Source: a virus
Reading direction: 5' to 3' (one strand)
Virus record (IMG/VR): IMGVR_UViG_3300025163_000003
DNA: 64,000 nt
The notes beneath the pieces are model-generated. The model saw nothing but the letters and a program-made list of their open reading frames with translations, made no database searches and had not been told where the DNA came from. Positions 5,393 through 61,457 of the stretch are shown in pieces; within the stretch, counting starts at the first letter, position 1; each line of letters starts with the position of its first letter. Position numbers and translations under genes: made by a program.

Positions 5393-5393
5393 A

Positions 5394-10291: not shown

Positions 10292-10567
10292 TTGGAAGAT
10301 GACATCAGAGAAATCTTACAAAGGTTGACAAGAATAGAAAGTAAGATGGAAGAAGTCTCACATCAATTCGAAAGAATAGACAAACGACTAGATAGAATAA
10401 ATTCAGAAATGGGTTCTCTTGATTCAAGAATGGATGGACTGGACAGGAAGTTTGTGGCACAAGAAGAGAGATACAACAGAATGATATTCATCTGGAAAGT
10501 AGCAACAATGTTCCTTGCACCTATAATCACAACACTTATAATCTATGTCATTCAAAGTCTTTTGTAA
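10292..10567 (+). CDS. XhlA-like lysis-associated protein (N-terminal coiled coil + C-terminal TM helix)
   Basis: TTG start; coiled coil REILQRLTRIESKMEEVSHQFERIDKRLDRINSEMGSLDSRMDGLDRKF followed by TM segment IFIWKVATMFLAPIITTLIIYVIQSLL. Same architecture as PBSX XhlA. Confidence 0.45.
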   Translation: MEDDIREILQRLTRIESKMEEVSHQFERIDKRLDRINSEMGSLDSRMDGLDRKFVAQEERYNRMIFIWKVATMFLAPIITTLIIYVIQSLL

Positions 10568-11567
10568 GGTGGAATACATGGATCCAGTTGTAGAAGAAAT
10601 CTTCAAGAAACACTGGAAGAAATTGAAGAAACTCCCCAATGTTATTGGTTTTGATGGTAAGTTGAGACCAAGAGAAAGAAACAAACAACTTGTACCTGGC
10701 ACTCAAGTCTTCAGAGTTTATGTTTCTAAGAAAGTGCCCATTCATCAATTGAAAGACTCTGAAATAATACCTAGGAAATTGAAAGCGTCAAATTGTGAAG
10801 TTGAAGTTGACGTGGTAGAGATAGGAGAGATAAAAGCTTTGTCATTAAACAAACAAAGACACAGACCTGTTAAAGGTGGAATTTCAACCATGCACTATCA
10901 AGGTACTGCATGTACATTGAATGGTTTCTTTCGTGACAAAGAAACAGGGAAAATCTTAGTAGCATCCAACAATCATTGTTATGCAATGGAGAATAAAGCT
11001 AAGAAAGGAGATCCAGTATTACAACCTGCTCCTTATGATGGTGGAATACTAGGGAAAGACAACATTGGAAGATATTACAAATGTGTTGAAATAAAGTTCA
11101 ATGAATTCACTTGCCCTGTAAGAAACTTCTTCCATAGAATTTATCGTTTCTTCAAACGTGAACAACCTACTAACAAAGTAGACATTGCATTTGCTGAATT
11201 AGATGTTGACTATGAAGTAGCTGCCACTTATATTCAAAATGCTTACAAAGGGAAACGTCTACCAGAAGAAGGAGAACAAGTACAAAAGACAGGAAGAACT
11301 ACTGAACATACTGTAGGTGAAGTAGTTTCTCTACATTGGAATGGTCAAGTACAATACTCAAGAGGCATTGCCTTCTTCGTTGACTGTATACTCATCAAAG
11401 GACATCATTTCTCTCAAGGAGGAGACAGTGGTTCTCCTGTCTTTGACATGGAAGGAAACTACATAGGAGCATTATTTGCTGGAAGTGATGAGTACACTAT
11501 TGTCTGTAAAGTGACAAACATTGAAGAGGAAGCAGAAGTAGAATTAATAACGGAAGAGGAGAAATGA
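10545..11567 (+). CDS. chymotrypsin/trypsin-fold serine protease (candidate lysis enzyme)
   Basis: Catalytic His in ASNNHCYAME, Asp in NKVDIAFAELD, Ser in GGDSGSPVFDMEGNYIGALFAGS (GDSGxP signature). No signal peptide. Confidence 0.8.
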   Translation: MSFKVFCKVEYMDPVVEEIFKKHWKKLKKLPNVIGFDGKLRPRERNKQLVPGTQVFRVYVSKKVPIHQLKDSEIIPRKLKASNCEVEVDVVEIGEIKALSLNKQRHRPVKGGISTMHYQGTACTLNGFFRDKETGKILVASNNHCYAMENKAKKGDPVLQPAPYDGGILGKDNIGRYYKCVEIKFNEFTCPVRNFFHRIYRFFKREQPTNKVDIAFAELDVDYEVAATYIQNAYKGKRLPEEGEQVQKTGRTTEHTVGEVVSLHWNGQVQYSRGIAFFVDCILIKGHHFSQGGDSGSPVFDMEGNYIGALFAGSDEYTIVCKVTNIEEEAEVELITEEEK

Positions 11568-14043: not shown

Positions 14044-15134
14044 CTCTTCACTACATCTACTACTTCTTTAGCTTCTTCCTCTGTCAACTTGTTGTGTATA
14101 GGTAGAGAGACTATTCGTTTATAGACATATTCTGCATTATGGTGTTGTGTGTGCTGGAAACACCAAGACTTTTGTAGGTGTACTGGCTTCCATGTAATTT
14201 TAAGTTGAATTCCTTCTTTCAAAGCTTCTTTCACAATTTTCAGTTGTTTCTTTCTTGGTACTAGTATTCCAAATAAGAAATAAGGATGGACACATGGATG
14301 GTATTCTCTTGGAACACACTGATATTCCACTGTGTCACCTAATTCATCTTTATAAAGAGAAGCTATTTCTTGTCTGTGCCGTAGAAACTTAGATAATTTC
14401 TTCATCTGAACAACACCTATAGCAGCTGAAGTCTCTGGCATTCTAAAGTTGAACCCTATTCTTGAATGTTTGTATTCCCATGGTTGTTTCTTCTTGTAAT
14501 ATCCTTGGTTCACTATTGCTTTCATCTCTTCATAGAAGATCTTATTGTCAGTTAATATTGCACCTCCTTCTCCTGTGGTAACTATCTTAGCTGAGTGGAA
14601 AGAGAAAGTAGTTATATCAGCAATTGAACCTAACCGTTTGCCCTTGTACATTCCACCTAATCCTTCAGCTGCATCGTCCACCACTACTAATCCTTCTCTC
14701 ATCAAAAGATCATAGTCAGCAGATAGTCCTCCAACATCTGTTGCTACTATAACATTCTTCTCTTTCACTTTAGAGACTTCATATGGATCAATGTTCCAAG
14801 TATCTTTCTGGCAGTCAACTAAAGTGATCTTGTCAGCAAAAGGAACAGCAGCATTTACAGTTGCTATGAAAGTAAAAGTAGGAGCACACAATTTTAGTTC
14901 TCCCAGAAATTCTTTCAGGAAGAAATATACTGTCATCAATGCAGTAGTTCCATTGCAAGTAGCTATTGCATATTTTGCTCCTGTATATTGACAAAGTTTT
15001 CTTTCAAACTCTCTTACCAGTGGTCCATTTCCACCTATCCAAGTAGAATCTACAACTTCATTTAAGATTTCACGTTCTTCTTCACCAATATCTGGACAAG
15101 CCCAAGGTATTCTTATTTTGTATCTAGTACCCAT
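14031..15134 (-). CDS. DegT/DnrJ/EryC1/StrS-family PLP-dependent sugar aminotransferase
   Basis: Motif FSFHSAKIVTTGEGGAILTDN (PLP-lysine context) and overall ~367-aa size. Confidence 0.85.
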   Translation of the reverse strand: MGTRYKIRIPWACPDIGEEEREILNEVVDSTWIGGNGPLVREFERKLCQYTGAKYAIATCNGTTALMTVYFFLKEFLGELKLCAPTFTFIATVNAAVPFADKITLVDCQKDTWNIDPYEVSKVKEKNVIVATDVGGLSADYDLLMREGLVVVDDAAEGLGGMYKGKRLGSIADITTFSFHSAKIVTTGEGGAILTDNKIFYEEMKAIVNQGYYKKKQPWEYKHSRIGFNFRMPETSAAIGVVQMKKLSKFLRHRQEIASLYKDELGDTVEYQCVPREYHPCVHPYFLFGILVPRKKQLKIVKEALKEGIQLKITWKPVHLQKSWCFQHTQHHNAEYVYKRIVSLPIHNKLTEEEAKEVVDVVKRCLK

Positions 15135-34842: not shown

Positions 34843-35180
34843 CTTTTCACTTTCCCTATCAACATCTTTCTTTCATTGTCCCATTTGACATCTACATCTT
34901 GAGGAGGAATATTGTAGTACTTCAAGAAATGTGAACAATAAAAGATATTGCAGTATCTCTTGCCTGAACCAGAAGGTCTAAGTCTAAAGTCAAGTGGATT
35001 AGAAGATGGTTTGATTCCAATTAAGTTATTCTTGGGATCAAAAAGAAGTTCCACATATTTCTCTTTGAAGTGTTCCAACTGTGTCAGAGGAAGAACTATT
35101 CTTCCATTGCGTATCTTAAGTTTGTCTGGAATTATTCTGACTTTAGGTTGTATTCTTATGAAAGAGTTACTTCCTTCCAT
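34824..35180 (-). CDS. hypothetical protein
   Basis: 118-aa ORF. Confidence 0.3.
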   Translation of the reverse strand: MEGSNSFIRIQPKVRIIPDKLKIRNGRIVLPLTQLEHFKEKYVELLFDPKNNLIGIKPSSNPLDFRLRPSGSGKRYCNIFYCSHFLKYYNIPPQDVDVKWDNERKMLIGKVKRCTKPF

Positions 35181-36142
35181 CTTCTTCTCTCCTTGAATTC
35201 TCTGACTATTCTATCTATGTCATGTTCAGGAGGTCTAACACCTACTATTCTTCTAAGTTCCTGTAGGGACAGACCTCCTGCTTTCTTGTCTGTCTTGAGA
35301 CCAATGTTATAAGTTACTCTTGGATCATCTATGATCTCTATTGCTTCTTTGTCCCAGTAGAATCTGACAATAGGTGCACCTATCTTTGTTATTGGATAAC
35401 TTCTCTTTTCAGCATATCCTAGACGCTTTACAAAACAACCAGTTGTTAACCAGTGTTGTTCATGGCAAGTCAAGTAGAAAGAGTTTCCTACTCTTCTGAC
35501 AGCATAATAAGTCTTGTGATCTTTGTATATTTGATGAATGTGAGCATGTGCTATCAATGCTGTTCGTAAGTTTTCAAATATCTTCTTCAACTGTGTCTCT
35601 TTTCTGATAGTTGCTGAAGTGTAACCATGAATAGCATAGACAGGATAGAACTGCTCAAACTCTTTCTGCTTAATATGAACAACAAACAATTGTCCTCTTT
35701 CTGGCCCAGGCAAGAGAGGTTTGATTCCTAACTTAGCTGCAATTATTTCTGTCAGACAGTCTGTTCCTTTAGTTGCTTTCCAGAATCTCTCTTCATGATT
35801 TCCTTCAAGTAAGACTATAATTCTATCCTTGATAGGTTCTAATAGTCTGATGACTTCAGTCAATTGCATTGCCACTAACTGTTTCTCTGATGCACCATAA
35901 CGTGACAGAGCAGCCATTTCAACATAGTCACCCATAAGAACTACTTTGACATTTGGATGTTCCTTGATGTACTTGACATATTCTAGATATTGCTTCTCTG
36001 AGAAGTAACCAGAACCGATATGAAAGTCGCCCATGAAGACTATTTCACCATAAGTACATCCTTTCTTAGGCTTCAGTTCTATCACTGGGATTTCTGCTTC
36101 CATTTCATCAAGAGTTATACCTGGCAAGATATCTCTTATCAT
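35156..36142 (-). CDS. calcineurin-like metallophosphoesterase (Mre11/SbcD-like fold)
   Basis: Motifs FMGDFHIGSGY, LMGDYVE, LEGNHEE, IHGYTS, AHAHIH. Confidence 0.8.
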   Translation of the reverse strand: MIRDILPGITLDEMEAEIPVIELKPKKGCTYGEIVFMGDFHIGSGYFSEKQYLEYVKYIKEHPNVKVVLMGDYVEMAALSRYGASEKQLVAMQLTEVIRLLEPIKDRIIVLLEGNHEERFWKATKGTDCLTEIIAAKLGIKPLLPGPERGQLFVVHIKQKEFEQFYPVYAIHGYTSATIRKETQLKKIFENLRTALIAHAHIHQIYKDHKTYYAVRRVGNSFYLTCHEQHWLTTGCFVKRLGYAEKRSYPITKIGAPIVRFYWDKEAIEIIDDPRVTYNIGLKTDKKAGGLSLQELRRIVGVRPPEHDIDRIVREFKERRRWKEVTLS

Positions 36143-36148
36143 GCTAAT

Positions 36149-36622
36149 TTACACCTTGTTTGCCTGGATTACTATTTCAAATGAGAACTCTACAAACTCA
36201 GTAGGATAACCTGTTTCCAGATACAATACTATCTCTCTAACTTCTTGTGGATTTATTACTGAACCATTGTAGTTCCAAGTCAGATTAAAGTAGGAAACAG
36301 CAATGTCTGGTTCCCAATTCTGTGACCACATCTCAAGAGTAACAGGACTATTTCCTTCATTTCTCAAGTAAATAGTGTAATTGTAAGTATAGCCTGCTAT
36401 CAAGTCAGTCCAGTTAATCAATGTCAGTTTGTTGATACATTCTGGTTCTGAGTAGCATTCAATTCCTAAAGTTATGATTCTACCTGTACTTTCAAGATGT
36501 TTTAGAACTGGTCTTAAAGTTAAAGCACCCAAGAGAAATGCAGCTAGACAGACAAAGAATATTGCTAAGATTTCTTTCCTCCTCAAAATCTCACCACCTG
36601 AAGAAATTGAATAATGTCCCAA
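36149..36622 (-). CDS. secreted/membrane-anchored protein with N-glycosylation sequons
   Basis: N-terminal TM ILAIFFVCLAAFLLGAL; sequons NWT, NYT, NLT, NGS. Confidence 0.4.
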   Translation of the reverse strand: MGHYSISSGGEILRRKEILAIFFVCLAAFLLGALTLRPVLKHLESTGRIITLGIECYSEPECINKLTLINWTDLIAGYTYNYTIYLRNEGNSPVTLEMWSQNWEPDIAVSYFNLTWNYNGSVINPQEVREIVLYLETGYPTEFVEFSFEIVIQANKV

Positions 36623-36891
36623 ATGAAGTCAATACCAAGAGCAATGACAGGAATCAGACGAAAGACAAGATCATATTTAGGTAGTCGTAAGCCAAGTTCT
36701 TCAAAGATGATCAAGCATACTAGAAGAGCTGCAAAATGACCAATTACATTTAGAGGAAAAGGAAGATGATACATTGCAATTGGATTAAGTTCAACTCCAA
36801 TTCCACTCTTAACTGCAAAGTCAGTTAGAAGGAAATTTACAGAGGCAAAGAAAGCAGGAAGAATTCTTGTCAACCACAAGAACTTTCTCAT
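36583..36891 (-). CDS. membrane protein
   Basis: Multiple hydrophobic helices. Confidence 0.35.
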   Translation of the reverse strand: MRKFLWLTRILPAFFASVNFLLTDFAVKSGIGVELNPIAMYHLPFPLNVIGHFAALLVCLIIFEELGLRLPKYDLVFRLIPVIALGIDFIWDIIQFLQVVRF

Positions 36892-36979
36892 TTGTACCTC
36901 TTCCTCCTCAATTTTCTCTTTCTTCTATTCCTACGTTGTCTCTTTTTCTTACTCTTTTTACTTCTATGTTTTCTGCTCA

Positions 36980-37204
36980 TTACCATGTTCTCCTTCTACG
37001 TTTCCATGGTTGACCAGGCAACTTCTTCTGGAGTATTCTCTTTTTATAAATGTTTCTTACACGTTGTTTGGGATTCTTCTTTTTCTTTCGGAGGAATACT
37101 TTCTTCTCACCTTTCTTGTTCTTACGTTCATGTTTGACTTGTGGTCTGTGACCAGGCATGTCTCTTACTTTACCAGCTTTAGCAAGACTACCATGTGTTG
37201 GCAT
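36980..37204 (-). CDS. rps30e: ribosomal protein eS30 (S30e) homolog
   Basis: MPTHGSLAKAGKVRDMPGHRPQV...KKRIL matches the conserved eS30 N-terminus (human FAU-derived S30 has HGSLARAGKVRGQTPKV...RRMQYNRRF). Extremely Lys/Arg-rich, 74 aa. Confidence 0.6.
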   Translation of the reverse strand: MPTHGSLAKAGKVRDMPGHRPQVKHERKNKKGEKKVFLRKKKKNPKQRVRNIYKKRILQKKLPGQPWKRRRRTW

Positions 37205-37205
37205 T

Positions 37206-37562
37206 TCACTTCCTCCTACTTGGTCTTATATCTCCATTCTCCTCTGCTTTCTTGTCTTCATACGGTGCTAATATTCTTCTGTAGAACTCCAATTTAACAC
37301 TTTCTAATACTTTCAGTGCATTTGATCTTCTTTCATAGTTGCCTCTTCCATAGACATCAACTAGTATTTTGTAGATGACATAAGTTACAACTCCTGAGTT
37401 TCTAGTACCTGAACTGGTCAAGTTTACTAGATTAAGAATAAGACCATCTAACCACTTTGCTAGATGTCTTCTTATTTCTCTTTTCACATATGGCATTGTT
37501 AATACTCTCACAAGACTTTGTCTATCAGGCCAAACTTCAATGCTTCTTCTGCTGACATCCAA
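37206..37562 (-). CDS. hypothetical basic protein
   Basis: 118 aa; no confident assignment. Confidence 0.3.
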   Translation of the reverse strand: MDVSRRSIEVWPDRQSLVRVLTMPYVKREIRRHLAKWLDGLILNLVNLTSSGTRNSGVVTYVIYKILVDVYGRGNYERRSNALKVLESVKLEFYRRILAPYEDKKAEENGDIRPSRRK

Positions 37563-38095
37563 TAGTCTTTCTTTCTTACTAATTTCTTTAAAGTTTTCAG
37601 CTTCTTTCCTGTTCTCTCTGCTAGAATTCTTAGAACCATCTCATTCAGTTTTGCTACTTCAGTTGACTGTTCCTGTAATTCTGTGCACTTTCCATATTCA
37701 AATGCTCCTACTTCATGGAGCATGAATCTAGACCACTTGTGAGCTATTCTCTCACTTCCTGCTTGTAGGATAATTGCTCCTGCTGATGCTGCTAATCCTC
37801 TCACTTCAATTGTTACTTTAGCACCTGAGAGAACAAGAGACCTGATAGAGTTGTACACTAGAAGAGCATGATAAACTTCTCCACCAACTGTGTTGAGAAT
37901 TATCTTGACATGTTTAGGTTTCTTCTCTTCCAGGATCAGACATTCTTTTGCTATTCTATTGCACAACTTCTCATCCAATTCTCCATGTATCACAATAATG
38001 TTCTTTTCAAGTAGATCTCTTTCTAATTCAACTGAAAAAACTGAAGTTGTTCTATCTTCCTCCTCCTGAAAATCCCAGTCAGTCATCCTTCTCAT
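37508..38095 (-). CDS. ClpP-family (S14) serine protease
   Basis: IILNTVGGEV, Ser in GLAASAGAIILQAG, His in MLHEVGAFEY. Confidence 0.8.
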   Translation of the reverse strand: MRRMTDWDFQEEEDRTTSVFSVELERDLLEKNIIVIHGELDEKLCNRIAKECLILEEKKPKHVKIILNTVGGEVYHALLVYNSIRSLVLSGAKVTIEVRGLAASAGAIILQAGSERIAHKWSRFMLHEVGAFEYGKCTELQEQSTEVAKLNEMVLRILAERTGKKLKTLKKLVRKKDYWMSAEEALKFGLIDKVL

Positions 38096-41484: not shown

Positions 41485-41882
41485 TGTTTCTTCACCTCAT
41501 CAAAACACAATTTCAAGAGAACTTCTGACTTTCCAATAGCTCCTTGTAATGGTATTTCTTTCTTGTATTCCAAGACAGGTTTCTCATCAGCTGGATTCAG
41601 AAACACTATCACTACTTTTCCCTTCAAACATGGTTTCTTTATCTTCAGAAGTAATTTCATTGAAAGAGAAGAAGTGTGATAATCCCAGTTGAGATAAGAG
41701 ATGTCAAGAGGAAGTTTCTTCCCATCTCCATATGCAAAAACTAGTAACTTGCATTTCTGAAGACGAGTAAAGACATGTTTTTGTAAAGACTTCAGTGATG
41801 GATTGTCAAGGTAATAAGGATCATGCAAAATAACTTCTGTCATTTCTTCACCAATAGGAGTAATAGAGTCTTTCCCACTCAT
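41475..41882 (-). CDS. hypothetical protein
   Basis: 135 aa. Confidence 0.3.
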   Translation of the reverse strand: MSGKDSITPIGEEMTEVILHDPYYLDNPSLKSLQKHVFTRLQKCKLLVFAYGDGKKLPLDISYLNWDYHTSSLSMKLLLKIKKPCLKGKVVIVFLNPADEKPVLEYKKEIPLQGAIGKSEVLLKLCFDEVKKQCQ

Positions 41883-43092
41883 TGACTACTGCATTTTTAC
41901 CACGAGTCAAGAAGTCCTTGATTTCTCTCTCTTTTAGTTCTATGTATTTGTCAAACATTTCACTACCAAGAGTCTCTTTCACAAGAGTATCAGATTTCAT
42001 TTCTGAAAGAGCTTCTAGTAATGACTTGGGAAGAGAAGGTAAGTTGTGTTCATAGGCATTACTTGAAAGTGGATCACCAGGATCAATTTTCTTTCTTACT
42101 CCCTCTAGACCAGCTTTCAACAGAACACTTAAGGCAAGATAAGGATTAGCAAGAGGATCAGATGCTCTATATTCAATTCTCATTCTCTCTTCCAAATTCT
42201 GTGAAGAATACAGAGGAACTCTTATCAGACAAGACCTATTCTTGAAACCCCAACTTATGTTGACAGGAGCTTCAGAATTCTTCTTTAGTCGTCTATAAGA
42301 ATTTACAGTTGGGCACATAATGGCTGACATTCCTCTAGCATGTTCCAATATACCACCAATGAAATATCTTCCAAATTGTGAGAGACCATTGTCATAGAAG
42401 AGATTTCCATTGTCAAACATTGAAATATGAAAGTGCATACCATTTCCTGGTAAGTGTGCCCATGGTTTTGGCATGAAGTTTACTTCTACTGTATGACTTT
42501 CTTTCAAGTATCTTCTCAAGAGAAATTTTATGAGAATAATGTTCTCAGAAGTGTTGATAGGAGAAGAATACTTAATACAGATTTCACTCTGGGAAGGACC
42601 AACTTCATGATTTCCATATTCCACATCTAATCCTGCTTTCTCTAAGACTTCCATAGCTTCCATTCTCAGACTTTCTGTTTCATCAGGAAAGATTTGACAG
42701 TATCTGTCAAGTAAATTCTCTGGCTCAAGAGGATTACCATTCTTAGTAAAGTAAAATTCTACTTCTGCTCCTACACGGATATTCTGATGAAATTCTTCTA
42801 AAGTTTTCTCTAAGACATACCTTGGATCAAGAGAGAATCTTTTGTCATCTTGATAGACTTCACAGAAGACTGTTGAGAATGGCTCACTCAAGTCACTGAA
42901 AAATATCTCTTTCTTAGTTCTTTCTATTGGCTTCAGAAGAAGATCAGAATTTTCTATTGTTGCAAAACCATCTACTGAAGAACCATCAAAACCAGTTCCC
43001 TCTTGTAGAACTACTTGATACTTGTCTTCAGGAATTGTTCTTACTCTTAATTTACCATTCAAGTCTAGGAAGAGAAGATAGACTATTTTCAT
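41848..43092 (-). CDS. glnA: glutamine synthetase family protein
   Basis: N-terminal beta-grasp signature GTGFDGSSVDGFATIENSDLLLKP. ATP-binding signature MPKPWAHLPGNGMHFHISMF. 414 aa. Confidence 0.85.
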   Translation of the reverse strand: MKIVYLLFLDLNGKLRVRTIPEDKYQVVLQEGTGFDGSSVDGFATIENSDLLLKPIERTKKEIFFSDLSEPFSTVFCEVYQDDKRFSLDPRYVLEKTLEEFHQNIRVGAEVEFYFTKNGNPLEPENLLDRYCQIFPDETESLRMEAMEVLEKAGLDVEYGNHEVGPSQSEICIKYSSPINTSENIILIKFLLRRYLKESHTVEVNFMPKPWAHLPGNGMHFHISMFDNGNLFYDNGLSQFGRYFIGGILEHARGMSAIMCPTVNSYRRLKKNSEAPVNISWGFKNRSCLIRVPLYSSQNLEERMRIEYRASDPLANPYLALSVLLKAGLEGVRKKIDPGDPLSSNAYEHNLPSLPKSLLEALSEMKSDTLVKETLGSEMFDKYIELKEREIKDFLTRGKNAVVNEWERLYYSYW

Positions 43093-43212: not shown

Positions 43213-43641
43213 TTACCCATTCAGTTCACCCTCCAATTCATCTAACAACTGAATAAAGAATTCAAGTTGTTCTCTCCATTCTCTGTTATCTAACCAAATA
43301 CAGTATCGTAAACGATCACAGTGAAGGCCATAAAGACTGAAACTTAGTTTTGGAGAAAACTTTCTGTCAAGTGGCTTCAAGATTCTATCAATAACTGTCT
43401 CAGGATCAAGAGAAGTTCTGAAGTCAATATGTGCTCTTCTACCTCCTTTCTCTGGATCTTCTCCATGACCACAGCAACTTTGAGTTGTCACTATAAATTT
43501 GTGTCTGTTTATTCTCTCAAGATAAGGAATCATTTCTTCATCTACATATCCCATTTGTATTTCTTCCTTCAGAGATTCTAATCTAAGTCTTCGTTCTTGT
43601 GGTGTCATCCTGTTTCCTTTGAACCTCTCCATCGAAAACAC
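43213..43641 (-). CDS. hypothetical protein
   Basis: 142 aa; QSCCGHGED motif; start region overlaps the topoisomerase 3' end. Confidence 0.3.
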   Translation of the reverse strand: MFSMERFKGNRMTPQERRLRLESLKEEIQMGYVDEEMIPYLERINRHKFIVTTQSCCGHGEDPEKGGRRAHIDFRTSLDPETVIDRILKPLDRKFSPKLSFSLYGLHCDRLRYCIWLDNREWREQLEFFIQLLDELEGELNG

Positions 43642-45253
43642 CTAATTCTTTCATGGCCCATTCAAACTTCTTTCTTAGACTTTTTGAATATGCTTTTTCA
43701 ACAGGATAATTGTATTTCAAACAGTACTTCAGAATTCTTCTTGGGTCAATGTATGAATTGAGAGAAGTGTTCAAGTTCCATTCAGCTGTTTCCTTTGTAA
43801 CTTCATAATCAAGTCTGTACTCAACTATCTTCTCCTTAATCTTTCTTATTCGTTCAAGTAGTCTTGCTTTCTGTTTCTCTGTCTTTGCCTTCTTTAACTT
43901 TTCTTCCAATTCCTTCAACTTTTCTTCATACTTCTGTATCCTTTCTTCTTTCTTCTTTAGTCTCTCTTGAAAGTTCTTAGGTAATTTCTTCTTGTGGTTA
44001 AGTCTTTTAGCAACATCACAATTGATAAGTTTGAAGGCTGTCTTCTTCAGATATAATGGTGAGTCTTCCTTGACTTCATAAAGGGAAGTGTACTTTTCTT
44101 CTGACATTTCCCATGTCTTACCAGCTAAGTGAGTCCTGAATATCTTTGCAGTTGCATTTGGAATTACTTCTTGTAAGAACTTGGCTATCTTCTTAGAATT
44201 CAAAGAGTCAAACACTCTCTGTCCTTTAGGAGTCTTCTTCCACAGTTTGAAGAAAACTTTGTGAATATCAGAAGGAAGCTCCAACTCTCTATGCCATGGG
44301 ACAAAATCTTTCCCTATGAAGTCAAGAATAACTTTGTTTCCTTCAAACTGAATATTTTCTTTTTTGAGTGTGGTACAACCTACGTTCCCTGTTTCACCAG
44401 CTATCTTTTCATCACCAACTCTAATTCCCATTTGCTGTATCAACCATACAGCAAGACCTAATTTCTGTCTTTCTTCATCATCTGAGAGAATAGCACTCTT
44501 GATGTGTTTGTCTAATTTCTTTTGATACTTGGGAATCTTAAGAGCTAGATCCCATTTCTTCTTTGCTCGTTCTTGTCTTATAACTGAATCCATACTGAAC
44601 CAGACATACTTCCACTTTCCACTGAGAGGATCTCGCCAACGAGCTATGTATAATTTGTCTGGCTTCCATTCTACCTTCCATCTTCCATCCGGTCTCGGTG
44701 CATCAGGAGATAAGTTGAGTATGATCTCCTCTTCCTTGATCCTTCTTTTGTAGCGTCCTCTCAGTGGATGTTTTCCTTTTGAAATATATAGTCCTGGTGG
44801 CTCAACTGTCCAATTCATAATTGGTACTCTTTGTCCATCCACAATAGCATATCCATATTTCTCCTTCAATGCTTCCCTCATCTTCTTTCTATCTTCTCTT
44901 AGTTTCTTCTTCATCTCTTTAGGTAAGTTCTTCTTCAGTTCCTTCTCTTTCTGTAATGCTTCATAGACCGATGAAAAGTCAAAGTCTTCCAACTTTACTT
45001 CTTCTTCAATGTTGAGTGCTATTCTCAAATCAGACAAGAAGTTGTTGACAAAGACTTCATCTTTCATGTAGTCAGTATCAAATTTCTTGACAAATGCAAC
45101 TACCATTTCTTCTTGTTCTGGTGTAAGTTTTATTTTCTTTCCTTTGTACTTGATAGTGTATCCTTTTGGCTCATAGGGAGGGATGTAAACTCCATTGTGT
45201 ATCAGTTGTTTCATAAGATTTCCCTCAGATACTTCCAAGCAAACCAAGTACAA
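43583..45253 (-). CDS. eukaryotic-type DNA topoisomerase IB
   Basis: HNGVYIPPYEPKGYTIKYKGKKIKLTPEQEEMVVAFVKKFDTDYMKDEVFVNNFLSDLR aligns with the human TOP1 core (HKGPVFAPPYEPL...YDGKVMKLSPKAEEVATFF...KEIFRKNFFKDWR). The active-site Tyr context TSLNSYIDPR matches TSKLNYLDPR. Confidence 0.9.
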   Translation of the reverse strand: MYLVCLEVSEGNLMKQLIHNGVYIPPYEPKGYTIKYKGKKIKLTPEQEEMVVAFVKKFDTDYMKDEVFVNNFLSDLRIALNIEEEVKLEDFDFSSVYEALQKEKELKKNLPKEMKKKLREDRKKMREALKEKYGYAIVDGQRVPIMNWTVEPPGLYISKGKHPLRGRYKRRIKEEEIILNLSPDAPRPDGRWKVEWKPDKLYIARWRDPLSGKWKYVWFSMDSVIRQERAKKKWDLALKIPKYQKKLDKHIKSAILSDDEERQKLGLAVWLIQQMGIRVGDEKIAGETGNVGCTTLKKENIQFEGNKVILDFIGKDFVPWHRELELPSDIHKVFFKLWKKTPKGQRVFDSLNSKKIAKFLQEVIPNATAKIFRTHLAGKTWEMSEEKYTSLYEVKEDSPLYLKKTAFKLINCDVAKRLNHKKKLPKNFQERLKKKEERIQKYEEKLKELEEKLKKAKTEKQKARLLERIRKIKEKIVEYRLDYEVTKETAEWNLNTSLNSYIDPRRILKYCLKYNYPVEKAYSKSLRKKFEWAMKELGVFDGEVQRKQDDTTRTKT

Positions 45254-49229: not shown

Positions 49230-49706
49230 CTATTCCTCTAATATTCCCAAATCTAATTCATCCAACACTTGAAAGACACTCTTTCTCACTCTAGTCTTAA
49301 TGTTGAATTTTTTCTTGAAGTATTCTATGAAGATGATGATTCTTTCCATTGGTGTCTTTTCTTGTCCTTCTTCTTCATTGAATATGACATGTCCTCTATA
49401 GACATAGAAACCAGCATCACCAAAAATGTCTAAAGATTTCTCTGCTCTCAAAATTGTCTTGAACTGATACAAGTCAAGTGAACGTTCTTTTGGTCCTCTA
49501 TGAGCATCTACTTTCTCCAACCAAGTCTTGAAGTGTTGGAACAGTTCACCATTGTTCTCAATTGGAATTCTGTATCCTTTTATTCCTTTGTCAGTTTCAT
49601 ATGCATAAGCTCTAAACTCTATACCTTTCACTGTGAGAAGAGTCTCTTCTTCCTTGACTACTTTGTGAGAGAAGACTTTAGGGTATGCTACTTGCTTTTG
49701 TGACAA
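49230..49706 (-). CDS. hypothetical protein
   Basis: 158 aa. Confidence 0.3.
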   Translation of the reverse strand: MSQKQVAYPKVFSHKVVKEEETLLTVKGIEFRAYAYETDKGIKGYRIPIENNGELFQHFKTWLEKVDAHRGPKERSLDLYQFKTILRAEKSLDIFGDAGFYVYRGHVIFNEEEGQEKTPMERIIIFIEYFKKKFNIKTRVRKSVFQVLDELDLGILEE

Positions 49707-51342
49707 GTCCTCTCTCCTCCAATTTTCTCTTTAACTCTTCTTTCAACTTGGTAGTCATAGCTGTTACTCTGACTAGACCATCTTCCTCTTCAAGAATAAC
49801 TAAGTCTGTCAACAGACTAATTTCTTTCTCAAATCTCATCTTCAAGAAAGCAAGGTCTTCTATCTCTGCATTTTGTTCTTGATGGAAGGAATGAATAACT
49901 TCAGCAAATACATCAATAGCAGTAGGTTCAACAGTCACATAGAAAGTGAAATTGGGATTGTCTTTAGTTGCCTCTGAAAGGACTTCTGACTTGTCTATTA
50001 CAGGCAGACCAGACATGTTCAAGAACTCATTAACTTCTTTCAAGTTGTTCCATTTCTTTTCTTGTATCATCTTCAAGTACTTTTTCTTGACTAAGTCTTT
50101 AACAGAATTGATTGTGTCTTCACAGAATTTGTATAGAGCATATATTTCTCGTGTTTCTGACAGGAGAGAACTTACTTCCTCTTCATTGAAGTGAGGTGGA
50201 TCACTTCTAGCATCTTCAACTATGGCATTCAATGTCAGGAAGATACCTCTGTTCTTCCAAGCTAACATGTCATCATTAAACTGTTGAACTAAGTCTTTTA
50301 CACTTTCAAGACTTTCAAATATTGTCTTTTCTTCACCTATCCAGACAAGACGATGAGGAAGAGTGAATGGAATTGCTTCATTTATCTCTTCAAATCCAAC
50401 TTGTCTCTTTCCTGCATACCATGCTAGAGCTTTAGCTAACAGAACAGTTGCTCTTAGAAATCTTGGTTTAGAGAGTGCTACTTTGGAACAGAGGTGTTGT
50501 TTCTCGTTACATTCTGCACATGTCTTCTGAAGTTTAGCTGCTGAGACATCAAACTTAGACTTGTAATGTTTACAGAGAGAAAGACAATTGGTGAAAAGTG
50601 TCAACCAGACTACTATTTTACTTGGTACCTCAATACCCATTATTTCTTTCCGTATCTCTTCATACTCTTTCCAAGTGATTATCTGTTTAAGAGGTCTCTC
50701 TTTTCTACCACAAGTAGCAAACTTATGAACCATCTTCTCTGATGCAACAGAATCTGCTTGAAAGACTGGTACTACAACGTCAATTCTGTCCAATGTAGCT
50801 AAGTTCTTTTCTTCCACTTGACCAGCATACCATTCTGTCAATGGATTTGTTAGAAATGTGTAGGTCTTAGTTAGAACATCTAAACCAGCATAAGTTCGTT
50901 CTTCTAACAACTGATGAAGTTTAGCTCTATATTTGTTGTTCCAGAGGAAGAATTCATCTATAATAATGTGATCTCTTTCCATCAATTCTCCTCTTCTCAT
51001 CTGTACTATGTTCTTCTCTCTGAAGACAGCTGGATCTATGTAAGCTATCATTGACTCATCTACTTCTGAAGAAGTAACAATTCTGTAATCAAGACCAGTT
51101 GTTATTGACCAGACTCTGGCTAAAGCAGATTTAGCTACTGCATGTTCTCCTATCAACATTATAGTCAAGTCAACAGCTTTTGAGAGACAGAAGATCTTGA
51201 TGACTTCATCCATGCCATAAAGTGTCTTCTTGATTTCTCTTATCTGTTCTTTTAATTTCTCTCTCAACTGCATTCTTTTCCCTACTTCTTTCTTGCTAGG
51301 AGACTTTTCTAAAATTTTCGTTGACATGGTATCACTCTCCAA
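49678..51342 (-). CDS. MoxR-like AAA+ ATPase
   Basis: Walker A of MoxR type (GxxxxAK[ST]) in IMLIGEHAVAKSALAR; Walker B HIIIDEFFLWNNKYRAKLHQLLEER. Confidence 0.55.
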   Translation of the reverse strand: MESDTMSTKILEKSPSKKEVGKRMQLREKLKEQIREIKKTLYGMDEVIKIFCLSKAVDLTIMLIGEHAVAKSALARVWSITTGLDYRIVTSSEVDESMIAYIDPAVFREKNIVQMRRGELMERDHIIIDEFFLWNNKYRAKLHQLLEERTYAGLDVLTKTYTFLTNPLTEWYAGQVEEKNLATLDRIDVVVPVFQADSVASEKMVHKFATCGRKERPLKQIITWKEYEEIRKEIMGIEVPSKIVVWLTLFTNCLSLCKHYKSKFDVSAAKLQKTCAECNEKQHLCSKVALSKPRFLRATVLLAKALAWYAGKRQVGFEEINEAIPFTLPHRLVWIGEEKTIFESLESVKDLVQQFNDDMLAWKNRGIFLTLNAIVEDARSDPPHFNEEEVSSLLSETREIYALYKFCEDTINSVKDLVKKKYLKMIQEKKWNNLKEVNEFLNMSGLPVIDKSEVLSEATKDNPNFTFYVTVEPTAIDVFAEVIHSFHQEQNAEIEDLAFLKMRFEKEISLLTDLVILEEEDGLVRVTAMTTKLKEELKRKLEERGLVTKASSIP

Positions 51343-51803: not shown

Positions 51804-52014
51804 ACTTCACCCGATTAAGTCTAGCTTCTAATTCTGCCACTCGTCTTTCTAAGTCTCTTAATCTTCTAAGAATTTCTTCCAACTTAGAGTAAGGATCATA
51901 GAGAGGAACTCTTGACACTTGAAACTCTTCTCTCAATGGATAGCCACAATTAGGACAGACTGGTACAGTCCCTTCCATTTCCCAACCACATCTAGGACAT
52001 TTCACTCTTTTCAC
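51796..52014 (-). CDS. Zn-ribbon + coiled-coil protein
   Basis: CPRCGWEMEGTVPVCPNCGYPL followed by LEEILRRLRDLERRVAELEARL. Confidence 0.4.
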   Translation of the reverse strand: MKRVKCPRCGWEMEGTVPVCPNCGYPLREEFQVSRVPLYDPYSKLEEILRRLRDLERRVAELEARLNRVKYV

Positions 52015-53251
52015 CTTTCAGTTCAGCTTTCACTTTCTGGTATACTCTATACAACACTTTTCCATCTATCTCTCCTATTCTTCTGTGAATTGTGGAGAGA
52101 ACTACTCTCTTGTTATCTAAGTCTATTCCTGCCAACTGAAGTCCTTCCATTATCTCCTTCACGACATCTTTAAGATCTTCTGGTGTTGGCATCAAGTATC
52201 TTCTTATTTCTGCTTTCACTCTGTCAATAGAATTCTCATATAACTCTGGTGTTACATCCTCCAAGAGTTCCTCTCTCACCTTAGGCTCTATGTCCTCTAT
52301 TTTCTCTAGTTCTGGATAGTTCTCGAGGACTTTCCTAATTGCTTTTCTGATGATACTTTTAGGGATAGTTGTTCTTGCATGTTCCCAACATTTCTCTTTT
52401 ATCTCTTCACACTTCAGTTTAGCCATTAACTCATCTTTCAAGTCAGTGTCATAATACTTAGCAACTAGACCTTCCATTCCATCTGGTTTCACTTCTTTCT
52501 TCAGTTCAAATTCTAGTCTCTCTATTTCCTTAGCAGTGAGTTCACCAGACCAGATTTCTTTTACTCTTCTCAGACCATTCGACCATGCTAATTCTTTAGT
52601 CTTGGACCAAGGAAGAAATCTCATTGTCTTCATGTCAACTATGTCAAATACTTTGAAGTCAATTGGAACTGAATATTGAATGAAATCTGTAGGATTCAAT
52701 GCTCCATAAAGTTCTCCAAATACAAGATATCCGTCTTTCAGAACTCTCTGTATTCTCTCATGTGTTCTTCCATCCTGTACTTTCATGAACAAGTCTTTCC
52801 ATGAAGAGATTCCTCTCTTGGCAGCTGGAGCTGTTTGAAGATCCCATCTAGGAACTAGTCTTGTCTTCCCCATTATTGTTCCATCTGGGAGCATGAAGAT
52901 ACCTAAGTTTGTACCATCAACTTTCTCTTGACAGACAACATGCTTTCCTTTCACTTCTGTCTCATCTGCATATCTTAGTTTGGGATATCCACGAACAATA
53001 AAGAGTTCTTTATCGAAGAAAGAGACAATCGTACCCATCAGACTATTTCTCTTCTGATAGATTATTCCTCTCCACTTGTGACCATTGATGCTATAAGAGA
53101 ATTCTTTCATATCTGCTGGTTTAGCATTCCATAGTTCGGAGACAGTTGCTCTAATACTCTGTAAGCTTTTCTTACCTTCCAACTCTTCTCTCAAGATGTC
53201 AAGTCTTTTACAAGTGGGTAATTCCATCACATTTACTTTCTTCACTTTCAA
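51992..53251 (-). CDS. ATP-dependent nucleic-acid ligase (Rnl2-like KxDGTN motif; RNA or DNA ligase)
   Basis: Motif I VCQEKVDGTNLG, motif III-like FKVFDIVDM, motif IV MEGLVAKYYD, motif V LMAKLKCEEIKEK. Confidence 0.7.
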   Translation of the reverse strand: MKVKKVNVMELPTCKRLDILREELEGKKSLQSIRATVSELWNAKPADMKEFSYSINGHKWRGIIYQKRNSLMGTIVSFFDKELFIVRGYPKLRYADETEVKGKHVVCQEKVDGTNLGIFMLPDGTIMGKTRLVPRWDLQTAPAAKRGISSWKDLFMKVQDGRTHERIQRVLKDGYLVFGELYGALNPTDFIQYSVPIDFKVFDIVDMKTMRFLPWSKTKELAWSNGLRRVKEIWSGELTAKEIERLEFELKKEVKPDGMEGLVAKYYDTDLKDELMAKLKCEEIKEKCWEHARTTIPKSIIRKAIRKVLENYPELEKIEDIEPKVREELLEDVTPELYENSIDRVKAEIRRYLMPTPEDLKDVVKEIMEGLQLAGIDLDNKRVVLSTIHRRIGEIDGKVLYRVYQKVKAELKGEKSEMS

Positions 53252-53295: not shown

Positions 53296-53718
53296 TTACA
53301 GTTCAAATTTGTCGTCTTCCTTCTCTTTCCACCAGACTGTGTAACTTGGATAATAGTCATCAGAATTCAACGTTCCAATTATGAACACTACTTCTCCATC
53401 TTTATAAGCTATAATGTCCCAAGTGTTCGTTTCAGTATAGACATAGCCATGTTCTACTTGCTTGATCTTTTCTACATCAAATTCTATCTTGTCATATTCT
53501 ATTTCTCTGAACTTGTCAATGCTTCCTATCAAATCAATAATATCAACAGGAGGATTTTCATGGATGACAGTGAAACTTCTATATCCATCACAATTGTCTA
53601 GCTCAATGAAGAAAGTCTTGTTCTTCTCTGGTACATCAACTACAACTAAGTCATTGTCTCCTCCTATGTCTTCATTTTGAATTACCTTCTCCAAGATAGC
53701 AAATCTTAACTTAGGCAA
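53296..53718 (-). CDS. hypothetical protein
   Basis: 140 aa. Confidence 0.3.
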   Translation of the reverse strand: MPKLRFAILEKVIQNEDIGGDNDLVVVDVPEKNKTFFIELDNCDGYRSFTVIHENPPVDIIDLIGSIDKFREIEYDKIEFDVEKIKQVEHGYVYTETNTWDIIAYKDGEVVFIIGTLNSDDYYPSYTVWWKEKEDDKFEL

Positions 53719-54001
53719 GTAGTTCCCTCATTTCTATCAAGATGAGATGAAACGAAGAAAACTTCTTCTTGAGTAAGGACAAAATAGAATCTCGTAGATG
53801 ATACCACTTTCCACCCACGATGATAATATCAGCAACAACTGGATAGTTAGAAGGGTTAAGAACATCCTGTTCACTCAAGCTATCTGTTTCGAAGACTTTA
53901 AGTCCAGTCCTTCTGAAGAGAGTGGATTTCCCTACATTAGGCTTGCCTACAACAATATACTTGACTGGCTTTGGAAATCCTTTCTTCTTGAGCCATGTCA
54001 T
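53711..54001 (-). CDS. small P-loop protein
   Basis: YIVVGKPNVGKSTLF Walker A resembling GTPase G1 boxes, but only 96 aa. Confidence 0.35.
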   Translation of the reverse strand: MTWLKKKGFPKPVKYIVVGKPNVGKSTLFRRTGLKVFETDSLSEQDVLNPSNYPVVADIIIVGGKWYHLRDSILSLLKKKFSSFHLILIEMRELLA

Positions 54002-56146: not shown

Positions 56147-56387
56147 TATATTCTAAACGCATCTTCCTTATCTTCTTGACACTCTCTCTTGAACCATACA
56201 ATTCAGCTAAAGAGTTGAAAAGATTATAGAGAATTTGTTCAGACAGTGGTGGATCACAGTCTAAGTGCAACTTGTATTCTCCATTTGTCAGTTCAGCTTT
56301 GATAGTAACTTTGAACTTGTCTAATGCTTTCTCTTTCCTGTTATTAGATGAACTATTCTTATGTTTCTTGAACCGCATCTTGGACAT
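56139..56387 (-). CDS. hypothetical protein (5' extent uncertain; overlaps the eL40-like ORF)
   Basis: 82-aa ORF; its low-complexity basic N-terminus overlaps 56321..56494 in another frame. Confidence 0.25.
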   Translation of the reverse strand: MSKMRFKKHKNSSSNNRKEKALDKFKVTIKAELTNGEYKLHLDCDPPLSEQILYNLFNSLAELYGSRESVKKIRKMRLEYIA

Positions 56388-56494
56388 TTGTTTTCAGACC
56401 TTCTGAATTTCTTGTGGCATTTCCTACATAGTTTGAAATGTCGTCTACGGGAATATTGTGCTATTCTCAGTTTCACAGGGTCAATAATTGGCAT
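56321..56494 (-). CDS. rpl40e: ribosomal protein eL40 (L40e) homolog, C4 Zn ribbon
   Basis: Unlisted 57-aa ORF: MPIIDPVKLRIAQYSRRRHFKLCRKCHKKFRRSENKCPRCGSRNIRIVHLITGKRKH. Compare human eL40: [49 protein letters not shown]. ATG 2 nt after the alba stop. Confidence 0.55.
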   Translation of the reverse strand: MPIIDPVKLRIAQYSRRRHFKLCRKCHKKFRRSENKCPRCGSRNIRIVHLITGKRKH

Positions 56495-56495: not shown

Positions 56496-56753
56496 TTACT
56501 TGCCTAATGTCAGCTCAATGAAAGAGACATTCTTCTGTCCCTGTTGTGTGTCAATTGTCTCTGTTCCTATCTTTATCTCTTTAAGTTGAATGTCAGTTGC
56601 AAATCTGTGTCTGACTATTTCAGCAACATCAATAGCTTTTGATATCAGTCTTCCTCTTGCTTTGATGACAATATCTTCTTTTCCTCTAAGTCTAGAAAGA
56701 ACAGCAACTACATATGTCATAGTTGGTTTCTTTCCAATTAGAATCTCAGCCAC
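56496..56753 (-). CDS. albA: Alba (Sso10b-type) DNA/RNA-binding chromatin protein
   Basis: ILIGKKPTMTYVVAVLSRLRGKEDIVIKARGRLISKAIDVAEIVRHRF...VSFIELTL matches the Alba fold consensus. Confidence 0.85.
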   Translation of the reverse strand: MAEILIGKKPTMTYVVAVLSRLRGKEDIVIKARGRLISKAIDVAEIVRHRFATDIQLKEIKIGTETIDTQQGQKNVSFIELTLGK

Positions 56754-60027: not shown

Positions 60028-60203
60028 AAGAGTCCTATTTTCTTGAATATACTTTCTAAAGCCTTAGACCTTTTCTTTCCAAAGTTGTCTTCCCAAAAAC
60101 TTACAAGTGATTCAGCAAGTTCACTTGCACTTTCTGGATAAGCCATTTCCTTGAAATAATTTTTCAATTCTTCTACTTCTTCATCAGTCAATTCAACTGT
60201 CAT
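60024..60203 (-). CDS. unlisted 59-aa acidic protein
   Basis: MTVELTDEEVEELKNYFKEMAYPESASELAESLVSFWEDNFGKKRSKALESIFKKIGLL. It fills a 165-bp gap, and its stop overlaps the next start. Confidence 0.3.
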   Translation of the reverse strand: MTVELTDEEVEELKNYFKEMAYPESASELAESLVSFWEDNFGKKRSKALESIFKKIGLL

Positions 60204-60612
60204 GTTTTACTCCCTCCTTTTCTCTTTCTTCTAAATATTCAACAAACTGTAAGGCTCTAGGAACTGCTTCCCATTTAATATCTAGTTGAGTGAGAGTAGG
60301 CATTTCAGTTACAAACACAAAGACATCTCTTTCTTTCCAATAAAAGAAACCTATGTAAGGCATTCTCTTGTGTAAGTTTTCATCTCTATCAGCAATTGTT
60401 GAATAAGGCAATACTCTTCCATCAAAGGAAACTCCATCAACATCAAACACATGTTTCTCTAGTCCTCCTTCTTTCAATAAGAAGTCTCTGAAAGTTCTAA
60501 GTGAAGGATTGTCACTTACTTTTAATGCAACTGCCTCTTGACAACCTAAAACTTCTAGAAGAGTAAGCTTTTCTGACAAGTCTTTCAAAGATTTACTCTC
60601 TATTGTTATCAT
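60193..60612 (-). CDS. member 3 of tandem triplicated gene family (unknown function)
   Basis: Shares with 60593..60994 and 60981..61457: ES(K/E)(S/T)L.DL...L.FLE.L.C.E......V.GNP(S/H)L..F...L......DG....G...P....I......GFFYWEE.D.FVF. Confidence 0.45.
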   Translation of the reverse strand: MITIESKSLKDLSEKLTLLEVLGCQEAVALKVSDNPSLRTFRDFLLKEGGLEKHVFDVDGVSFDGRVLPYSTIADRDENLHKRMPYIGFFYWKERDVFVFVTEMPTLTQLDIKWEAVPRALQFVEYLEEREKEGVKHDS

Positions 60613-60994
60613 CTTCCTCTCTCCTCTTCAAGTATCTCACAAGTCTTAAAGCTCTTCTGACTGGAGGTTCTGGTGAAGGAGTTATAGGAGAAGTGAAGAC
60701 AAAGGCATCCTTTTCTTCCCAATAGAAGAAGCCACGATGAGTGAAGAGAAAACTAAGAGCATCTTCAACTTCTGTGATTGTCCAGAAAGCTAAAGCATTT
60801 CCTTTAACTTTCTGCCCCTCAATTACAAAACGATATTCTTGAGGCTTACGATACTTTAATAGTTTGTCTCTAAATCGTTCTAGACTAGGATTGCCTTTCA
60901 CTAGAATCATTATTCCTTCTTTACAGTCTAAAGTTTCCAAGAAAGCTAGTTTGCCTTCAAGGTCAATTAAGGATTCACTTTCAAGAGTCAACAT
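60593..60994 (-). CDS. member 2 of tandem triplicated gene family
   Basis: See 60193..60612; GNPSLERFRDKLLKY...HRGFFYWEEKDAFVFT. Confidence 0.45.
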   Translation of the reverse strand: MLTLESESLIDLEGKLAFLETLDCKEGIMILVKGNPSLERFRDKLLKYRKPQEYRFVIEGQKVKGNALAFWTITEVEDALSFLFTHRGFFYWEEKDAFVFTSPITPSPEPPVRRALRLVRYLKRREEDDNNRE

Positions 60995-61457
60995 CTTTAT
61001 TCCGTGCCTTCAAATATCTTATGAACTTTAAAGCTCTCTTGACTCCTGCTTCTTTTGGATTCTTCATGATTCCAAAGTCATAGTCAAAGACTAACAACTC
61101 TTCTTCTATCCAATAGTAGAAACCGTATGTAGGCAAGACTTCTTTGATTCTTTTCTCCTTGTGTATGATGTTGTAGTAAGGAACAACAGTCCCATTGAAC
61201 TTTTGACCATCTATTGTGAAATGAGCATTCTTGATTTTCCTCATTCGTTTCAAGTTTTCACAGTAAGATTCCAAGTGTGGATTACCAGAGACTTTTATCA
61301 GAATTGATTCTTCACATTCTAAGAACTCCAAGAACATCAAGATATTTTCCAATTCTTCTAGTGTTTTGTTCTCTATGATTATCATCTTCTCACCTAGTGA
61401 CGGAGGAAACAGACATGAATGTTTTTCCTCAGACATAACTGACATTCTTTCATGCAT
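60981..61457 (-). CDS. member 1 of tandem triplicated gene family
   Basis: See 60193..60612; GNPHLESYCENLKRM...TYGFYYWIEEELLVFD. Confidence 0.45.
   Translation of the reverse strand: MHERMSVMSEEKHSCLFPPSLGEKMIIIENKTLEELENILMFLEFLECEESILIKVSGNPHLESYCENLKRMRKIKNAHFTIDGQKFNGTVVPYYNIIHKEKRIKEVLPTYGFYYWIEEELLVFDYDFGIMKNPKEAGVKRALKFIRYLKARNKDVDS

Follow-up and report, generated by a model that had tools for sequence, protein, structure and literature searches.

On the minus strand of a 64,000-nucleotide stretch of viral DNA (IMG/VR virus record IMGVR_UViG_3300025163_000003; the whole stretch is referred to as the window), an open reading frame (ORF) of 74 codons, running from an ATG start to a TAA stop, encodes a very basic protein (39% K+R, 4% D+E; MPTHGSLAKAGKVRDMPGHRPQVKHERKNKKGEKKVFLRKKKKNPKQRVRNIYKKRILQKKLPGQPWKRRRRTW) that resembles the ribosomal protein eS30 (also called S30e). 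A first-pass annotation, made from the nucleotide sequence without database searches, had interpreted this ORF as a virus-borne eS30 homologue, and its position and translation were confirmed exactly (Table 1).

Homology to eS30 and organization of the protein

Searches with the single sequence pointed to one family in each collection. The sole Pfam family was Ribosomal_S30 (PF04758; E=0.01, 16.4 bits, gathering score of 27 not reached) and the sole NCBIfam family was S30e (NF006817; E=3.8e-6, 26.6 bits, cut-off of 75 not reached); the curated thresholds were missed because the protein is a remodelled variant. In a PDB sequence search (E<=10), 45 of the 46 matches were eS30 chains, led by the archaeal chain 9fhl_e (E=0.0016). 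A profile built exclusively from nine virus-borne relatives recovered two solved archaeal S30e proteins with E=1.3e-12 and 2.4e-10, with the N- and C-terminal halves aligning separately on either side of an insertion, while the sole competing matches, a designer pentatricopeptide repeat (PPR) protein and an alpha-solenoid protein, were reached via a short segment. Individually, eight of the nine profile members also matched Pfam Ribosomal_S30. Alignment of the viral profile with 33 cellular (Bathyarchaeia) S30e sequences in hhalign spanned columns 1-56 of the 57-column template, with a probability of 99.7% and E=9.5e-27, and PHROGs contained no family for the eS30-like protein. Together with the viral setting of the contig, these comparisons bear out the central claim of the annotation and make the homology to eS30 firm at the sequence level: the profile search that it had proposed did match Ribosomal_S30/S30e, though under the curated cut-offs, and the unrelated basic protein that it had considered as a possible better match was not seen. 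Its remark that eS30 is ubiquitin-fused in eukaryotes does not hold as worded, as PMC8354635 describes the fusion partner of eukaryotic eS30 as the ubiquitin-like FUBI and not ubiquitin itself.

Comparison with published archaeal N-termini and with a cellular set (68 distinct Bathyarchaeia sequences from 80 genomes) showed which parts of eS30 the viral protein keeps (Table 1). The N-terminal signature H-G-S-L-x-[KR]-A-G-K-V-[RK] is present together with Pro2 and the histidine, and residues 1-14 are nearly invariant in the viral and cellular sets, with at least 90% conservation at most positions. In contrast, the QTPK linker, which does not vary among the 68 distinct cellular sequences, is 21-34% conserved in the viral set and not found in the window protein. 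Further downstream, residues 45-58 align with PRVRNRKEYEKRV of solved archaeal S30e, and the helix signature P-x2-R-x-R-R-x-Y-x-K-R is matched by PKQRVRNIYKKR; P45 and R50 are invariant and Y/F53 is conserved (Y53 in the window protein), whereas the linker and the C-terminal tail vary. The tail of the window protein is the Bathyarchaeia-like LPGQPW plus extra arginines. At 74 amino acids, the protein is longer than the S30e of the 80 cellular genomes (53-58 amino acids; Bathyarchaeia consensus, 53) and lies outside the range of about 50-60 residues typical of mature eS30, and its identity to any cellular S30e is only about 50% over the core. The eS30 signature at the N-terminus had been recognized in the first-pass annotation, whereas the enlarged form, with a 15-residue insertion replacing QTPK, and the existence of a sizeable family on virus-like contigs had gone unnoticed.

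An AlphaFold2 model of the protein comprised a helix at residues 45-58 with a predicted local distance difference test score (pLDDT) of about 90, a weak beta-hairpin in the insertion region (pLDDT about 60) and otherwise low confidence. A Foldseek search with this model gave no significant match; human eS30 took the first three places (E>2), an outcome to be expected for a ribosomal protein of extended shape. In 30S structures of Saccharolobus, eS30 occupies the mRNA entry channel and touches the rRNA helix h16, with Pro2 packed against h44 beside the A site, and in eukaryotes a histidine of the eS30 tail helps to stabilise codon-anticodon pairing (PMC11698992). The pattern of conserved motifs indicates that the virus retains the anchoring part of eS30 and the part extending to the decoding site, and has remodelled the segment that connects them.

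Table 1. Features of the window discussed in the text. Positions are those of the 64,000-nucleotide stretch; aa, amino acids; nt, nucleotides; dN/dS, ratio of non-synonymous to synonymous substitution rates; L001, metagenomic relative of the window.
Feature	Position	Strand	Evidence or remarks
eS30-like ORF (74-aa virus-type 'expanded' homologue)	36980..37204, including stop codon	minus	ORF, family matches, dN/dS 0.11 versus L001
N-terminal tail, residues 1-14, MPTHGSLAKAGKVR	37163..37204	minus	archaeal Pro2 and conserved His4
Rebuilt linker, residues 15-34	37103..37162	minus	DMPGH replacing cellular SQTPK, then 15-residue basic insertion RPQVKHERKNKKGEK
C-terminal helix, residues 45-58, PKQRVRNIYKKRIL	37031..37072	minus	AlphaFold2 helix, block pLDDT 89-90
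C-terminal tail, residues 59-74, QKKLPGQPWKRRRRTW	36983..37030	minus	Bathyarchaeia type (cellular consensus LQRKPGQNW)
DUF6899 gene, upstream	37206..37562	minus	Pfam PF21840, E=4.4e-19
GGAGG Shine-Dalgarno-like motif	37212..37216	minus	7 nt upstream of ATG, within end of DUF6899 gene
32-aa hyper-basic mini-ORF, MVMSRKHRSKKSKKKRQRRNRRKRKLRRKRYK	36888..36986	minus	66% K+R; overlaps eS30 stop (ATGGTAATGA); GGAG upstream
eL40-like 57-aa zinc-ribbon protein	56321..56494	minus	adjoins Alba gene (56496-56753, minus)
Tail module	140-11567	plus	two phrog_290 tail-protein paralogues, weak chaperone and tape-measure matches, fibre/hub, protease
Auxiliary genes (glutamine synthetase, TYW3-like, Topo IB, RNA ligase, MoxR-like; coordinates listed jointly)	41848-43092, 43213-43641, 43583-45253, 51992-53251, 49678-51342	all minus	

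Expanded relatives on virus-like contigs and selection on the gene

An exhaustive HMMER search over 1.84 billion representative proteins yielded seven relatives at E<1e-3, all of which are small and start with MP[TS]HG. In a profile search of a 5.8-billion-protein collection, the top block consisted of about 28 clusters of 60-92 amino acids (E=1e-24 to 1e-9), mostly without a precomputed Pfam match, below which the list turned to 53-amino-acid cellular S30e. With the single sequence as query, a word-indexed protein search returned only the 97% relative and a scan of IMG/VR gave no match, whereas an alignment-based scan found relatives there. Comparing the eS30-like protein and a conserved neighbour protein with GenBank phage and archaeal-virus records by tblastn gave no match. 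Counting the window protein, at least 29 distinct expanded eS30 proteins carry a basic insertion of 13-22 residues, at the same site in 29 of 29 cases. The insertions usually contain an aromatic residue followed by R-E/D, and an (H/K)KKHK.P run ahead of the helix. Expanded eS30 is a previously undescribed subfamily.

Genomic context was checked for three IMG/VR viral contigs, L011-L013 (58-121 kb), and for the contigs L094 (86 kb), L096 (144 kb), L007 (30 kb), L098 (10.5 kb) and L004, which at 3 kb is too short to judge viral context. Most of the inspected contigs have several genes in common with the window at 25-74% identity (none for L004 and only ribonucleotide reductase (RNR) for L098), and the rest of each long contig is made up of small unannotated genes together with RNR, RadA, ERCC4, ParB and similar genes. 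Every long contig inspected that carries an expanded eS30 looks viral. A family-level relative of the window, represented by contigs L002 and L003, shares six genes with it at 40-54% identity and encodes an S30e of canonical length at a different genome position (P0007; 54 amino acids, 61% identical to the window protein). In a neighbour-joining tree over 50 core columns, the expanded forms grouped together with a bootstrap of 28%, or of 43% with P0007 inside. Because these values are weak, a single acquisition is not claimed from the tree; it is mainly the common insertion site that suggests a single origin of the expanded forms.

The closest relative of the locus is L001, a 2.2-kb metagenomic contig with 96% DNA identity to the window. 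The annotation had raised the possibility that the ORF might be absent or frameshifted in close relatives; in L001 it is intact, and the conservation in related viruses that it had suggested checking is borne out by homologues in L002/L003, L007, L011-L013, L094 and L096. Seven codons differ between the window and L001, five of them synonymously and two by conservative or non-synonymous changes, corresponding to a Nei-Gojobori dN/dS of about 0.11 over eight substitutions, which shows that the eS30-like gene is under purifying selection. A third-position count for L007 versus L008 (7/7) was dropped as a selection test, as it is biased by the retrieval of these contigs through exact protein identity.

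Genomic setting and host lineage

The eS30-like gene is closely packed between its neighbours. Because only one nucleotide separates the stop codon of the upstream DUF6899 gene from the eS30 ATG, both genes probably belong to one operon, and DUF6899 homologues recur on other eS30-carrying contigs (L002/L003, at 3407-3679 in L002; L011, at about 14262-14525). The ClpP gene, which the first-pass annotation had placed directly next to the ORF, is not adjacent; it lies one gene further on (37508-38095), the immediate upstream neighbour being the DUF6899 gene. The downstream basic protein of that annotation does exist and corresponds to the 32-amino-acid ORF, whose start overlaps the eS30 stop codon and which is in turn overlapped by the next gene through ATGA. 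Shine-Dalgarno-like motifs such as the one ahead of the eS30-like gene precede 67 of the 116 predicted window genes, compared with 15% of random positions. ORFs on the opposite strand over the eS30-like gene are Leu/Phe-rich mirror images of its K/R codons and are without support.

The 32-amino-acid mini-ORF differs from its counterpart in L001 by three synonymous and no non-synonymous changes (neutral chance about 0.004 by site counts), and two similar mini-ORFs (969-1085 and 1096-1197; 63% and 79% K+R) directly follow the eS30-like gene of L004. The idea that the mini-ORF encodes an eL41-like protein was unsupported, with no match in Pfam or PDB. A calcineurin-like phosphoesterase gene lies close to the eS30-like gene, at a distance of about 1 kb or less, in the window (35156-36142, minus), L001, L094 (9195-9728) and L096 (8948-9571), with no mutual similarity between these phosphoesterases detected by tblastn; in L004 (1240-3243) and L007 (10503-12101), the gene after the eS30-like one instead encodes a protein of the metallo-beta-lactamase fold. 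Compared with the window, L001 is without 715 bp (36143-36857), so that a 157-amino-acid ORF (36149-36622) and most of a 102-amino-acid membrane ORF (36583-36891) are gone and the eS30 mini-operon is placed directly beside the phosphoesterase gene.

Homologues of other ribosomal proteins were found in the window and in one of its relatives. The second putative ribosomal-protein gene of the first-pass annotation exists and encodes a protein whose top three PDB matches are archaeal eL40 chains over the full length (E=3e-5 to 4.8e-5). Pfam gave no L40e match, and the NCBIfam L40e match was weak (E=0.0076). The virus thus probably has a divergent gene for a second ribosomal protein. Contig L096 (ERZ27247703 k141_248326) encodes a uL16/L10e homologue at 8108-8656 (Pfam Ribosomal_L16, E=5e-12, above cut-off), 1.3 kb upstream of its own expanded eS30 gene, so that several genes for ribosomal proteins are present in some members of the group. 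At its C-terminus, the expanded eS30 protein P0024 (92 amino acids) bears a CxxC...CxxC zinc ribbon that ends in KGLRP and recalls eL40; its identity as an eS30-eL40 fusion was not established, the comparison with the window eL40-like protein giving only E=0.037. Another ORF of the window, which encodes a 96-amino-acid P-loop protein (53711-54001, minus), weakly matched NCBIfam ribosome-biogenesis GTPases (YlqF, E=1.3e-4; Der, E=4e-4) and has a homologue in L011 and L096; it may be a generic GTPase fragment.

The gene content of the window identifies the contig as that of a tailed archaeal virus. The window forms a single dense gene array of uniform G+C content (about 0.37) with a strand switch near 12 kb, and within its 64 kb there is no tRNA, rRNA or Rfam match and no cellular housekeeping gene. 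The fibre or hub protein of the tail module has 1615 amino acids and contains a carbohydrate-binding module, and the minus-strand array encodes a family-B DNA polymerase (PolB), RNR, a RadA-like ATPase, ClpP, a nucleoside deoxyribosyltransferase, glutamine synthetase, a eukaryote-type topoisomerase IB (Topo IB), RNase HI, an RNA ligase, ParB, Alba and a MoxR-like ATPase. Among deposited viruses, the closest to its PolB are haloarchaeal tailed viruses (25-28% identity), and relatives of the contig include IMG/VR viral contigs. The 64-kb window does not include genes for capsid, portal or terminase proteins. In the cluster of Topo IB proteins 100% identical to that of the window, the longest contig listed is 106 kb, and the contigs retrieved had lengths of 15 kb and 4.7 kb. 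For an archaeal virus, the auxiliary genes form an unusual set, with a full-length glutamine synthetase, Topo IB, the RNA ligase, the MoxR-like AAA+ ATPase and a short fragment resembling the tRNA wybutosine methyltransferase TYW3. Paralogous genes occur side by side at two places, with the phrog_290 tail-protein paralogues adjacent at 1217-2030 (plus) and three consecutive ORFs of 133-158 amino acids with similar N-termini (MITIESKSL / MLTLESESL...) at 60193-61457 (minus).

With regard to the host, eS30 is one of three small-subunit proteins common only to archaea of the TACK (Thaumarchaeota, Aigarchaeota, Crenarchaeota and Korarchaeota) and Asgard groups and eukaryotes (PMC11698992), which restricts the possible host range, and we conclude that the host belongs to the Thermoproteota. 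The nearest named cellular S30e proteins are almost all from Bathyarchaeia. In a GTDB scan that covered one genome for each species and whose seed pattern excluded T8, the best 80 of the 310 matches were almost all from this group, and nearly all NCBI-named proteins in the top 120 of the profile search were Bathyarchaeota/Bathyarchaeia, with two exceptions labelled Crenarchaeota and Bacteroidales. In published N-terminal alignments, residue 8 is T in Nitrososphaeria (M[PA]THGSLTKAGKVRGQTPK) and Sulfolobales and S in Bathyarchaeota, the Nitrososphaeria S30e being compared through the first 19 residues given in the published supplement; residue 8 of the viral family is S or A. The PGQ.W tail is likewise common to the viral protein and Bathyarchaeia S30e. 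By these sequence features a Bathyarchaeia donor of the eS30 gene is favoured over the Nitrososphaerota donor that the first-pass annotation had put forward. Nitrososphaerota as host are possible, though the eS30 evidence does not support them; the Topo IB of the window is closest to proteins from metagenome-assembled genomes labelled 'Nitrososphaeria archaeon' (49-51%, versus 40-43% for Bathyarchaeia).

Possible action at the host ribosome and relation to known systems

We lean towards the eS30-like protein being a functional, virus-adapted eS30 paralogue that was captured from a Thermoproteota host and acts at the eS30 site of the host 30S subunit. The capture would have taken place in an ancestor of the tailed archaeal viruses of this group, from a host that was most likely Bathyarchaeia-like, and the gene would now be expressed from an operon within the array of replication and nucleotide-metabolism genes. 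During infection, the viral protein would occupy the eS30 site of the host 30S subunit and replace, or compete with, host eS30, with its C-terminal helix anchored on h16/h18 and its N-terminal tail (Pro2, His4) reaching h44 and the A site. The basic insertion, taking the place of QTPK at the mRNA entry channel, could then alter the handling of mRNA or factors to the benefit of the virus, either by favouring viral mRNAs or by keeping ribosomes active or resistant under host shut-down or hibernation factors. Because the rRNA-anchoring helix and the decoding-site tail are preserved, and because the group also carries eL40 and uL16, replacement of host eS30 in 30S subunits appears most likely; from these features we infer incorporation into the ribosome, the placement of the insertion and an effect on translation.

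Several points weigh against this reading. The single sequence is below both curated family thresholds, and the loss of the universally conserved QTPK linker could mean a poor fit to the eS30 site. The window member has V in place of the aromatic residue (W/F) common to most viral insertions. Conservation of the N-terminus is partly inflated, as relatives were sought with N-terminal words and patterns; the same MP[TS]HG motif was recovered by an unseeded HMMER run. The dN/dS value rests on only eight substitutions, the case is built on sequence and on the predicted structure of the free protein, and a general role in binding nucleic acids would account equally well for the adjacent hyper-basic mini-ORFs.

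The conserved binding elements would also serve an inhibitor or decoy that attaches to the eS30 site or the A site, blocks the mRNA entry channel by means of its insertion and shuts off host translation. The insertion does replace the linker located in that channel, and the gene lies among early or middle-type genes. However, the virus needs host ribosomes, and a stoichiometric plug would block viral mRNAs as well, while the eL40 and uL16 homologues of the group look more like the supply or replacement of parts than like blocking; we consider such an inhibitor unlikely. Equally improbable in our view is an exapted nucleic-acid-binding protein that, together with the 32-amino-acid peptide, condenses or protects viral DNA or RNA in a core- or protamine-like manner and has no role at the ribosome. 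The high K+R content of the protein, the even more basic mini-ORF directly after it, the similar pair behind the eS30-like gene of L004, the missing QTPK linker and the variable C-terminal tail would all fit such a function, but charge-based binding would not be expected to keep the 14-residue tail and the P..R.R..Y.KR helix across proteins that are about 40% identical overall, and the gene is situated among the replication and metabolism genes, a long way from the structural module (140-11567).

Two further explanations can in effect be dismissed in view of the insertion, the sequence divergence, the wide membership of the family and the signal of selection. That a host gene was recently acquired as a neutral passenger, or that a host contig was mis-assembled or mis-binned as viral, is very improbable: the LPGQPW tail and residue 8 do resemble Bathyarchaeia S30e, but the core is only about half identical to cellular S30e, the insertion occurs in none of the 68 distinct cellular sequences, its site is common to at least 28 other proteins, the longer contigs inspected are virus-like, dN/dS is low and the surrounding 64 kb are a uniform viral array with a tail module. 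It is hardly credible that the ORF is a spurious product of a K/R-rich low-complexity frame, as might be suspected in an A/G-rich region with several overlapping ORFs on the opposite strand, since specific homology extends over its full length, a ribosome-binding site precedes it, differences from L001 are biased towards synonymous ones, and it is the opposite-strand ORFs that mirror the K/R codons, not the reverse.

With a role at the eS30 site as the preferred reading, the sequence comparisons suggest that these viruses probably alter the ribosomes of their hosts. More tentatively, and with doubts prevailing, widespread large tailed viruses of TACK archaea might make virus-specialised ribosomes, in which the conserved insertion of a remodelled eS30 reshapes the mRNA entry channel next to the decoding site and, in some genomes, eL40, uL16 and hyper-basic mini-proteins are added, so that several components would be swapped during infection. 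If this more tentative reading is true, it would be the first eS30-based remodelling of the ribosome by any virus and a natural probe of eS30 function. By keeping the tail and the anchor helix and rebuilding the linker that lines the channel, the viral family provides a natural experiment on the role of this part of the ribosome. The findings also suggest that archaeal viruses interfere with the translation machinery to a greater extent than hitherto recognized, and expanded eS30 could be of use as a marker for a group of sediment-archaea viruses that is as yet uncharacterised.

That viruses, mostly bacteriophages, can encode ribosomal proteins is well established (PMC6375957). In the open-access literature searched, archaeal viruses are credited only with eL21, in haloarchaeal tailed viruses, and bL19, in the Bathyarchaeia virus Kunpengvirus (PMC10848311); a search for eS30/S30e and archaeal viruses found nothing relevant, and the only viral eS30 is an untranslated antisense fau insert in the mouse retrovirus FBR-MuSV. 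Within that literature, eS30 is therefore a new ribosomal-protein family for viruses.

Among known systems, cellular S30e of TACK archaea (PF04758, NF006817; Saccharolobus solfataricus 30S, PDB 9fhl) is like the viral protein in its tail MP[TS]HGSL.KAGKVR, its helix P..R.RR.Y.KR and, in the style of Bathyarchaeia, its PGQ.W tail, but differs in that the viral form is virus-encoded, has 74 instead of 53 residues and has QTPK(I) replaced and extended by 15 residues. The eL40 of FloV-SA2, a giant virus of eukaryotes (PMC11499249), likewise stands alone, is not fused to ubiquitin and belongs to a large DNA virus, and the window has an eL40 homologue of its own; the FloV-SA2 protein is, however, 85% identical to that of its host, compared with about 50% for the remodelled eS30 described here, and the host domain is a different one. 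Also related are bS21, bL12, bL9 and other ribosomal proteins of phages (Mizuno et al. 2019, PMC6375957) and eL21 and bL19 of archaeal viruses (PMC10848311), which, like the eS30 of the window, are of the small, peripheral, late-assembling type, are carried by tailed viruses under purifying selection and are presumed to modify the ribosome. In contrast to these, eS30 is a different protein, and its viral copies are not near-copies of a host gene but a structural variant of their own with a conserved insertion.

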